From the NCBI GenBank assembly GCA_051294905.1, contig CM119373.1, positions 30,256,001-30,320,000 on the forward strand: a stretch of DNA of 64,000 nt. The letters are read 5' to 3'. A program made the translations under genes and the position numbers. Of the stretch, positions 12,265 through 13,854 are shown in pieces (the first letter of the stretch is position 1; each line of letters opens with the position of its first letter). The stretch is from Botryllus schlosseri. Lineage: Eukaryota. Under the pieces are notes generated by a model that was not told where the DNA came from, did not search any database, and worked only from the letters and a program-made list of their open reading frames with translations.

Positions 12265-12635
12265 TACTGTACAGTGTACATGCACGGATCATGATGGAGT
12301 CTCGTTCCATCAGTTTAAATAAATACTGCGTGTTGATAGCTTTTTGTTATACAATAATTAACCAAAGAAACAGAACTCCTGCGTGAAATTGTCACAATCA
12401 CCATTATGGATCAGGACATTGTATTAAACTGTAAGGGTCAACCGTCATAATCGATACAAGTCGTATATTCCAGGTTGATGGCGAGAGAAAGATCTATTCG
12501 CGAGCTGCAATCTCCGATATCCTAGCAAGAGGACAAATAATCGTACATGACACAAGACTAGTGCAGACTACGGACGTGATCGCGCACATTAACTTGATGT
12601 GAGTTATGACAGTTGGGGTGGCACATTAACTTGAT

Positions 12636-13854
12636 GTGAGTTATGACAGTTGGGGTGATGTACGACGTACTGCATATATCTTTTATTCAAGGTATAATAA
12701 GCACACAGAATACCTTCCCGAGGACCTCGATACTATCGTCGGCGATAGACGGGCATCGACATGGAGCAAATACATGGACGTTGCTTGCGTCGGATATTGC
12801 GTGTTTGAGGAGAAACCGCCGTTCTCGGAATGGGAATATTATGTGACCGACAAACTTGGTTTCATGGCTCCTGCAACATTCGTCAGTCGCAGTTACCAAC
12901 AATGGCCACAAATGGTGTCAATTAATCATATCCGTGCTGTGGAGTTGTGGTCAATGCGGCGAGCGCATAACAGCATGAATCTGTCCCAAGCTCTTGATAT
13001 AGTCAGGAAAATAGTGTCCACATCGGTCACGAAGGCAACGTTGCAGGGGCATGTTCTAAACGACAGCGAGACACTGCTTTGCCTGATGTGCGCTGCGATC
13101 GAGGCACGCGGCAAAGACGTGGCGGAAGCGCCACATATCCTGCTGAAGGGTGAGGCTGGGGCGGGCAAAACGCTTCTTACGAGTCTATTTTTCCCAGACC
13201 GCATAACGACAAGCATGCCACAGGATTCGTGTGGTGTTGGACAACTAGTCATGTCGACAAACAGCCGAATATTGAAAGTTGATGACGCCGGTCTTTCGTT
13301 TTGGAAGAATATTGGAATTATGGCTGCCATCAAACAGATGTTCCACGGTCCATGGTCAGCGAAGTCCCACGGATCTAAACAAAAGAACGCAGCTACAGTA
13401 GCAGTAATCACGACAAACTTGGACCACCCGTTTGACGTATTAAAGGATGCCGGAGACAATATCAATGCGTGGCAACGACGTTTCTTAGTTTATCAATGCG
13501 TGGCAACGACGTTTCTTAGTTATGGACTTCAGCGGGCAATTTGAAACAACTACCGGACGCAAAGCCGTACTCACCAGTCTGTGTGAGACGCTACTTGACA
13601 CACTGGTTGTGGACTTCTTTCAATCAAATAAGTCATCCGAAATTGAGGCTGCATGCTGTCAGTCATTGTTAAAGGTAGTCCATGACTATTACGAATGTAT
13701 AGGAGCCACGGCGACCAATCCACCGCATCCACCACATCCGCAGGAGACCGTATTGCGTGTGGCAACACATCGAACATTGCATCTGCTCAGCTACGATATT
13801 ATGTCATGCATATCTCAATACGTGACAATCACACCAAACATTACAGTTACCTAA
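12636..13854 (+). pseudogene. Superfamily-3 (AAA+) helicase of viral type (NS1/Rep/E1/LT-like), frameshifted
   Basis: ORF 12636-13544 has Walker A GEAGAGKT (13149-13172), Walker B ILKVDD (~13281), motif C VITTN (~13410) and arginine finger AWQRRF (~13476) at SF3 spacing. A perfect 31-bp tandem duplication (13460-13490/13491-13521) shifts the frame; removing it fuses RRFLV to ORF 13522-13854 (MDFSGQF...). Confidence 0.85.

Follow-up and report, generated by a model that had tools for sequence, protein, structure and literature searches.

A palindromic Polinton satellite of Botryllus schlosseri with a broken, predicted nuclease-dead Rep-type helicase gene

The window analysed here, a stretch of 64,000 nucleotides of Botryllus schlosseri DNA, contains a 22-kb element of palindromic, hairpin-like shape (positions 2945-24795) that begins with AGTAGT at 2945, finishes with ACTACT at 24795 and is enclosed by a target-site duplication (TSD) of GGCGTA (Table 1). 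The Polinton-like ends reported in an initial annotation, which was made from the letters alone, were thus borne out. Besides the outer arms, an inner part of the left arm mirrors a part of the helicase-bearing segment. This inner mirror pair is as young as the outer arms, since it diverges by 1.44% (11 of 766) versus 2.12% (111 of 5225) in the latter, and therefore the helicase segment was already there when the arms were last homogenized. No direct repeats flank the helicase segment at the five junction pairs checked; hence no TSD of its own was found for it, such as a separate later insertion, the objection raised in the initial annotation, would be expected to leave. The repeats at 10370-11653 have long matches elsewhere in the genome at the C14 locus only and could be an origin. 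In the downstream part, from 13860 to 17500, frame-wise dN/dS gave no consistent reading frame. The arms contain several local features: ~950 bp restricted to the left arm (5353-6306) and in part common to other members, a 1-kb insertion with AGTCA repeats in the right arm (21696-22702), and degenerate repeats of ~41 bp in both (7941-8100 and 19511-19673), which translate into F-S-L-G-like units and are expanded in other members. Outside the element the window bears two direct copies of a ~650-700 bp repeat separated by 5.6 kb (26831-27473 and 32460-33170), as well as another MITE-like palindrome (55433-55914).

Table 1. Coordinates of the features of the element within the window.
Feature	Position	Strand	Remark
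Target-site duplication, left copy GGCGTA	2939..2944	+	6 bp
Left outer arm, begins AGTAGT	2945..9493	+	Common to the palindromic satellite family; without Polinton core genes
Inner left-arm part	9486..10367	-	Mirror of 15219-16029, i.e. of the helicase-bearing segment
Imperfect repeats of ~200/400 bp	10370..11653	+	Iterated GGAGCC motifs, both strands
High-copy MITE, unrelated	11654..12273	.	306-bp inverted arms; inserted 5' of the helicase gene
Predicted exon, C-terminal half of degenerate HUH domain	12474..12598	+	Motif III Tyr position is Leu
Predicted phase-2 GT-AG intron	12599..12691	+	Encloses unit 2 of the 37-bp duplication
Helicase exon: oligomerisation region and SF3 ATPase	12692..13854	+	Frame shifted by the 31-bp duplication 13460-13521
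Downstream part of the helicase-bearing segment	13855..17691	+	Collinear with the C14 copy; no gene recognized
Broken multi-C2H2 zinc-finger gene	17692..18330	+	Occupies the loop in a satellite subfamily; two other copies have a 227-aa ORF
Right outer arm, ends ACTACT	18227..24795	-
Target-site duplication, right copy GGCGTA	24796..24801	+	6 bp

The ORF 12630-13544 contains the Walker A (GEAGAGKT, 13149), Walker B (KVDD, 13275), motif C (ITTN, 13407) and arginine finger (RRF, 13476) of an SF3 helicase at their compact spacing, in agreement with the first reading of the sequence. A profile of 33 relatives, from which the window protein was excluded, matched the window region with an E value of 7.6e-79, so that the SF3 assignment, as a sequence match, is far above chance. 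The window protein (P0001) has 54 matches in this genome and none in a word-indexed protein search, and a Pfam scan of the window ORFs yielded nothing above the cut-off. The gene is indeed broken by an exact 31-bp tandem duplication that shifts the frame just past RRF, the homologous tail being found in the ORF 13489-13854. The 37-bp tandem duplication (12584-12657) at the 5' end is likewise real and exact, but it need not disrupt the gene, because it would double the predicted splice donor (GTGAGT at 12599 and 12636). The acceptor of this putative intron ends at 12691 in the window, and a donor follows the same motif in the window and at C1:13.16M, C16:22.37M, C3:4.878M and C3:1.16M, where a phase-2 intron is predicted. 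No RNA reads on 12410-13653, which covers the predicted exons and the ATPase core, appeared in 6% and 3% of two runs, and thus splicing stays a prediction. Exact short tandem duplications occur seven times within the element and eight times elsewhere in the window, and none was seen in seven regions with younger elements, a distribution most simply explained by decay after insertion. The 31-bp lesion itself must be recent, since a contig from the run of another organism (X12) spans the site without the repeat. Judging from its sequence, the window copy of the gene is dead; its unbroken form is predicted to be spliced and nuclease-dead.

The nuclease-dead state can be followed through the clade to which the window copy belongs. 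In HUH nucleases the His of motif II is the metal-binding residue and the Tyr of motif III the cleaving one (PMC6668415). Of the 25 full-length relatives, 23 keep the motif II His and 24 the motif III Tyr. A clade made up of the window copy, its close copies and a sister group is set apart by a branch that received UFBoot 100 in a tree of 56 rows, with pieces below 120 residues and partial library hits excluded, and SH-aLRT 99 in a tree of 29 rows. In all eight exon-2 pieces of this clade the motif III Tyr position is occupied by Leu or Val; of the exon-1 pieces, five extend as far as motif II, and none of these has the His-Gly pair. For the window group, in which no exon 1 was found, the loss of motif II is deduced via the sister copies. 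The pieces of the upstream exons match the HUH portion of the family profile collinearly, with an hhalign probability of 17-19%, which is weak, and each of these alignments scores above 60 of 60 column shuffles. The window clade would hence retain a degenerate HUH remnant devoid of the catalytic His and Tyr, the assignment being weak in absolute terms. The earlier statement that no HUH motif lies upstream was right as to a working nuclease motif and missed the remnant in the predicted exon. Compared with five close copies, the helicase exon has dN/dS values of 0.157, 0.108, 0.153, 0.127 and 0.08 at dS 0.25-1.4, while the other frames, used as controls, gave 1.0-6.1; for exon 2 the ratio is 0.38 (interval 0.15-0.96). 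The ratios show the signature of a helicase lineage kept under purifying selection.

Two relatives, P0003 (554 aa) and P0004, are unbroken and longer than the window protein, to which P0003 is 32% identical over 232 residues. The predicted structure of P0003 (mean pLDDT 78), which stands here for the window protein, comprises a HUH plus an SF3 domain. In Foldseek searches AAV Rep68 was its first match in the PDB, and IHHNV NS1 the top match in BFVD, where denso-like, CRESS Rep and E1 proteins were also found. The ATPase domain fits E1 with a Z of 13.7 (rmsd 3.8, 182 aligned), AAV Rep40 with 13.1, NrS-1 with 12.4 and D5 with 9.6-9.9, E1 being tied for the best fold match, and the N-terminal domain fits the HUH domain of a circovirus Rep (Z 8.5, rmsd 3.0, 93 aligned) and RepB (8.4). 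In the protein atlas an NS1 cluster came first, with a score of 0.95. These matches lead to the consideration of the family as an HUH-SF3 Rep without a name. It is of small-DNA-virus type, as the initial annotation had proposed, and not D5 or cellular, and its placement may be either parvoviral or CRESS-like: the fold matches mix NS1, CRESS Rep and E1 at structural identities of 10-20%, and the trees contained no named NS1. Pfam Parvo_NS1 or Viral_Rep gave no match among 25 of the 28 families listed for 35 members, and a PDB sequence search returned P-loop-level matches only. An AEP primase domain fused to SF3, the D5 type, is not seen; the N-terminus of the intact relative has the HUH fold, and the upstream exon of the window aligns there. 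P0003 has 51 representatives in a library of 1.84 billion proteins, none of the ten looked up having an informative name, and P0005 found one match in the word-indexed protein search. One helicase relative is a Styela clava protein, and none was found in viral contigs, metagenome contigs or phage records.

An unbroken endogenous region resembling a small DNA virus lies at C3:8427840-8432499. It contains a basic, Gly-rich ORF of 740 aa, ORFs of 197 and 141 aa, and a 554-aa HUH-SF3 Rep that is 79% identical to the Logan protein P0007. The Rep comes after the 740-aa and 197-aa ORFs, both of which recur at two other loci and might, as a guess, encode a capsid; they gave no family match and have no match in the window.

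The first 456 bp of the element have 1869 candidates in the genome, of which 40 were scored. Six paired plain members are all palindromes with arms of 6-7 kb, mostly 99.5-99.97% identical, and a loop of 0.3-1.2 kb; none of the six has a match to the helicase family. A C2H2 zinc-finger loop gene is present in three further members. Satellites carry other payloads, zinc fingers as well as inserted elements. The loops of plain satellites (e.g. C17:2.794M) hold a short conserved ORF of ~90-105 aa that is missing from the window copy. The exact end pattern matched once and missed ends known otherwise, so it provides no copy count. An autonomous Polinton at C12:23.79M has a terminal inverted repeat (TIR) that resembles the first ~440 bp of the element, at 67-80% in pieces, and is likely to represent the helper family. 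Its ORFs, from their position and motifs, are taken by us to encode polymerase, integrase, capsid and protease; among the Polinton core ORFs the packaging ATPase alone had a Pfam match, in the C11 element. The latter, an autonomous Polinton too, was rejected as a helper, as it has no arm sequence in common with the element. The failure of PF03175 to find any polymerase in the genome was a false negative, a native polymerase ORF giving 149 matches. A search with 218 ORFs from nine regions, six of them with autonomous Polintons (E<=0.01), detected no Polinton core genes in the element, the matches there being to the MITE, small repeats and helicase pieces. By gene content, the element, with no polymerase or integrase and no capsid found, belongs to an abundant non-autonomous satellite family that depends on an ordinary Polinton family. 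The proposal of an undescribed, self-standing virus or transposon lineage is thereby not sustained; most inspected members lack even the helicase.

Window-type helicase is associated with satellite sequence. Close helicase copies are found in four regions (window, C14, C1:29.08-29.2M and C3:4.89M), and satellite sequence lies at most 11 kb away in 4 of 4 of them versus 1 of 17 loci elsewhere (Fisher p 0.0008; 0.0035 if the window is omitted), the flank of several control loci covering only ~6-11 kb on one side. At C14 the repeats, the helicase and the downstream DNA are collinear with the window, bordered by family spacer and, at the opposite end, by a piece of an arm. In the C1 region helicase fragments are followed on the same strand by the zinc finger and an arm, and the helicase copy at C3:4.89M is preceded, at a distance of 11 kb, by a piece of arm and spacer. 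The complete helicase-bearing element was found only once, and none of the other scored end-loci, compared by eye, coincides with a helicase match. The window and C14 copies differ with a dS of 0.245, a non-coding divergence of 0.15-0.21 and an arm divergence of 0.30, values that fit descent inside the satellite family. Against C3:4.89M and C1:29.1-29.2M the helicase dS is 0.65-1.4, above the 0.13-0.21 divergence of the nearby satellite pieces, which fits separate captures. Most helicase copies reside in C3:4.8-9.2 Mb and C1:29.08-29.2 Mb, two stretches dense in broken viral and transposon fragments that could be piRNA-cluster-like.

The Rep family has other homes in this genome. At C1:13.16M, C5:20.77M, C1:23.06M, C16:22.37M and C3:8.89M, copies of the sister group have a recombinase-like ORF at a distance of 8-24 kb, the recombinase label being our assumption from a motif and without support from Pfam. 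A 32-kb unit with the sister helicase, predicted to be spliced, and this ORF is duplicated at ~99% (C1:13153716-13186111 and C5:20.75-20.785M). Purifying selection is seen in the sister clade too, with a dN/dS of 0.06-0.37 in three comparisons, the fourth being saturated. By coordinates, no match of the recombinase-like ORF is nearer than ~75 kb to a window-type copy. The ORF forms regular tandem units or lies near contig ends at C3:17-26 kb, C2, C4, C9, C16 and C22, an arrangement that suggests a subtelomeric or tandemly arrayed element, and on C30 it is present in 11-12 copies ~17-19 kb apart.

Autonomous Polintons harbour a further, degenerate form. P0006, a gene of the C11 Polinton (C11:4509822-4511438) directly upstream of the polymerase, has a variable N-terminus and an SF3 domain with degenerate ATPase, which keeps Walker A in an altered form and has lost Walker B, motif C and the arginine finger. 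Its C-terminal domain matches the Rep family profile (E 3.4e-9; hhalign probability 94.9, 205 columns), and its low-confidence model (pLDDT 53) fits AAV Rep68 and E1 best, with Z of 9.9 and 9.4. The gene has a dN/dS of 0.06 between two copies, a sign of purifying selection, 65 matches in the genome, in several autonomous Polinton families, and none in the word-indexed protein search. Leaving aside two second pieces and 89 more distant polymerase matches, 54 of 63 such loci have the 3' end of a polymerase gene in the same orientation less than 7 kb downstream, and among the 60 polymerase loci most similar to the query the gene accompanies 54; it is absent from the one helper-family copy examined (C12:23.79M) and from one other Polinton family. 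The free tree separates it from the window clade, although the AU test does not reject their union (p 0.163). Remnants of P0006 type also occur as inverted pairs ~15-16 kb apart (C2:1138832 and 1154533; C6:21315545 and 21330847). The arms of the C2 pair, which is palindromic, measure at least 6.7 kb and do not match those of the window; the pair hence probably belongs to a second satellite family derived from another Polinton. The C11 Polinton contains, in addition, Death-domain and BIR-domain ORFs (1099-1416 and 2780-3163, in the numbering of the region where P0006 stands at 3822-5438), which are likely apoptosis modulators.

The reading we prefer, with a probability of about 55%, is that of a palindromic Polinton satellite with a broken, predicted-spliced, nuclease-dead Rep helicase, which was likely once the accessory helicase of a satellite subfamily. 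This subfamily would have captured a Rep gene and kept its helicase for a helper-driven, protein-primed replication, the protein-primed polymerase and the integrase presumably being supplied by the helper Polinton. During replication the displaced strand would fold back on its 6.5-7.4 kb arms, a process that would keep the arms identical and by which the left arm may have received a copy of a part of the captured segment. The HUH domain would have lost its catalysis because protein priming needs no nick, as we propose by analogy with E1 and LT, and would be left with DNA binding only, perhaps to the repeats of 10370-11653. The ATPase ring would run in front of the helper polymerase and open up the long duplex, and the window copy would have decayed after inserting. 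Helicase loading, unwinding and the role of the repeats are in this scheme what we infer.

It is possible, with a lower probability, that the gene is passive cargo. Selection would then act in another replicon, either an unknown virus or the 32-kb recombinase-type element, and satellites would have taken up the ~7-kb segment at least once and left it unused. The sister clade, found beside the recombinase-like ORF at five loci and itself under purifying selection, agrees with this, as do the other payloads of the satellites, the helicase dS exceeding arm divergence in two regions, and a contig of run X5 that tracks the segment up to 17692 and then departs from the window sequence. Such cargo, however, requires that the same cassette of repeats, helicase and downstream DNA entered the same family at least twice, in the window and at C14, whereas the divergences between these two fit descent within the family; moreover, no window-type copy was found free of nearby satellite sequence, and the recombinase-like ORF keeps its distance of at least ~75 kb. 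Far less probable is an insertion of an ordinary parvovirus-like endogenous element into the satellite after the satellite's own insertion. Although endogenous family members whose HUH motifs are intact, accompanied by a candidate capsid gene, do exist in the genome (C3:8.43M and others), this explanation is largely refuted by the mirroring of part of the segment in a left arm of the same age, the lack of a TSD at the five junction pairs checked, the position of the gene in a separate, well supported clade with predicted splicing, and the C14 copy, which is likewise embedded in family sequence.

A multipartite, bidnavirus-like virus, in which an autonomous Polinton and satellites with zinc finger and helicase would be co-packaged and the helicase would act in trans, is improbable as well. 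The segments of bidnaviruses have matching termini (PMC8502044) and number up to twelve in some of them (PMC11071296); helper and satellites here have common termini too, and the likely helper copy is devoid of the SF3-like gene present in other Polinton families of this genome. Nevertheless, the elements integrate with 6-bp TSDs, no match to a parvovirus-type capsid was found in the element, and amplification does not need the helicase, given that the form which bears it is rare and broken and that the plain satellites are many and young (arm identity 99.5-99.97%).

The accessory-helicase reading gains interest from the fact that one genome holds, from a single family, intact Reps of donor type, a selected nuclease-dead clade and a Polinton gene with degenerate ATPase, so that the order of the losses and the function of each Rep form become testable. 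We tentatively suggest that the family was domesticated repeatedly, as a nuclease-dead helicase in satellites, as the ATPase-degenerate gene in 54 autonomous Polintons and in the giant recombinase element. If so, the step that formed bidnaviruses would be recorded more than once in a single genome, and large DNA transposons of animals would have drawn accessory replication functions time and again from the Reps of small viruses, satellites being the staging ground.

The element shares with Polintons/Mavericks the 5'-(AGT)2//(ACT)2-3' ends and the 6-bp TSD (PMC8097293), and its termini resemble those of an autonomous family of the same genome; it differs from them in lacking core genes, being mostly an inverted repeat and bearing a Rep-derived helicase. 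Polinton-like viruses are known to possess SF3 helicases, either fused or as separate proteins, but those that these sources describe mostly form fusions with PolA or AEP domains, or their origin is unstated, whereas that of the element derives from an HUH Rep (PMC5499653; bioRxiv 10.64898/2026.10.13.758929). No Rep-derived, nuclease-dead helicase in a Polinton or satellite was found in the literature searched, where the supplementary tables on adintoviruses and polisuviruses, and Repbase, could contain unnamed ones. The intact relatives have the HUH plus SF3 architecture of parvovirus NS1 and CRESS Rep, unlike the window clade, which lacks the catalytic residues. An SF3 helicase with an inactivated HUH domain is also found in papillomavirus E1 and polyomavirus LT (PMC6668415); the loss seen here is, however, independent, being nested among members that keep motifs II and III, and it occurs in a linear transposon instead of a circular virus.

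A further comparison is with Bidnaviridae. BmBDV, a member of that family, likewise has a parvovirus-like SF3 helicase without a working rolling-circle nuclease between Polinton-type TIRs, and bidnaviruses are proposed by Krupovic and Koonin (2014) to have originated by transfer of parvoviral genes into a Polinton scaffold with loss of the nuclease (PMC4061559). The bidnavirus-like combination advanced at the outset holds as regards an SF3 protein between Polinton ends, and fails in that the element has no polymerase in cis and no capsid was found in it. The element also integrates with a 6-bp TSD and has arms of 6.5-7.4 kb, and its gene is predicted to be spliced and retains an HUH remnant, in contrast to bidnaviruses, where HUH is lost. 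It is not a bidnavirus; by analogy, it resembles the intermediate proposed for their origin, of which it would likely be a natural example.
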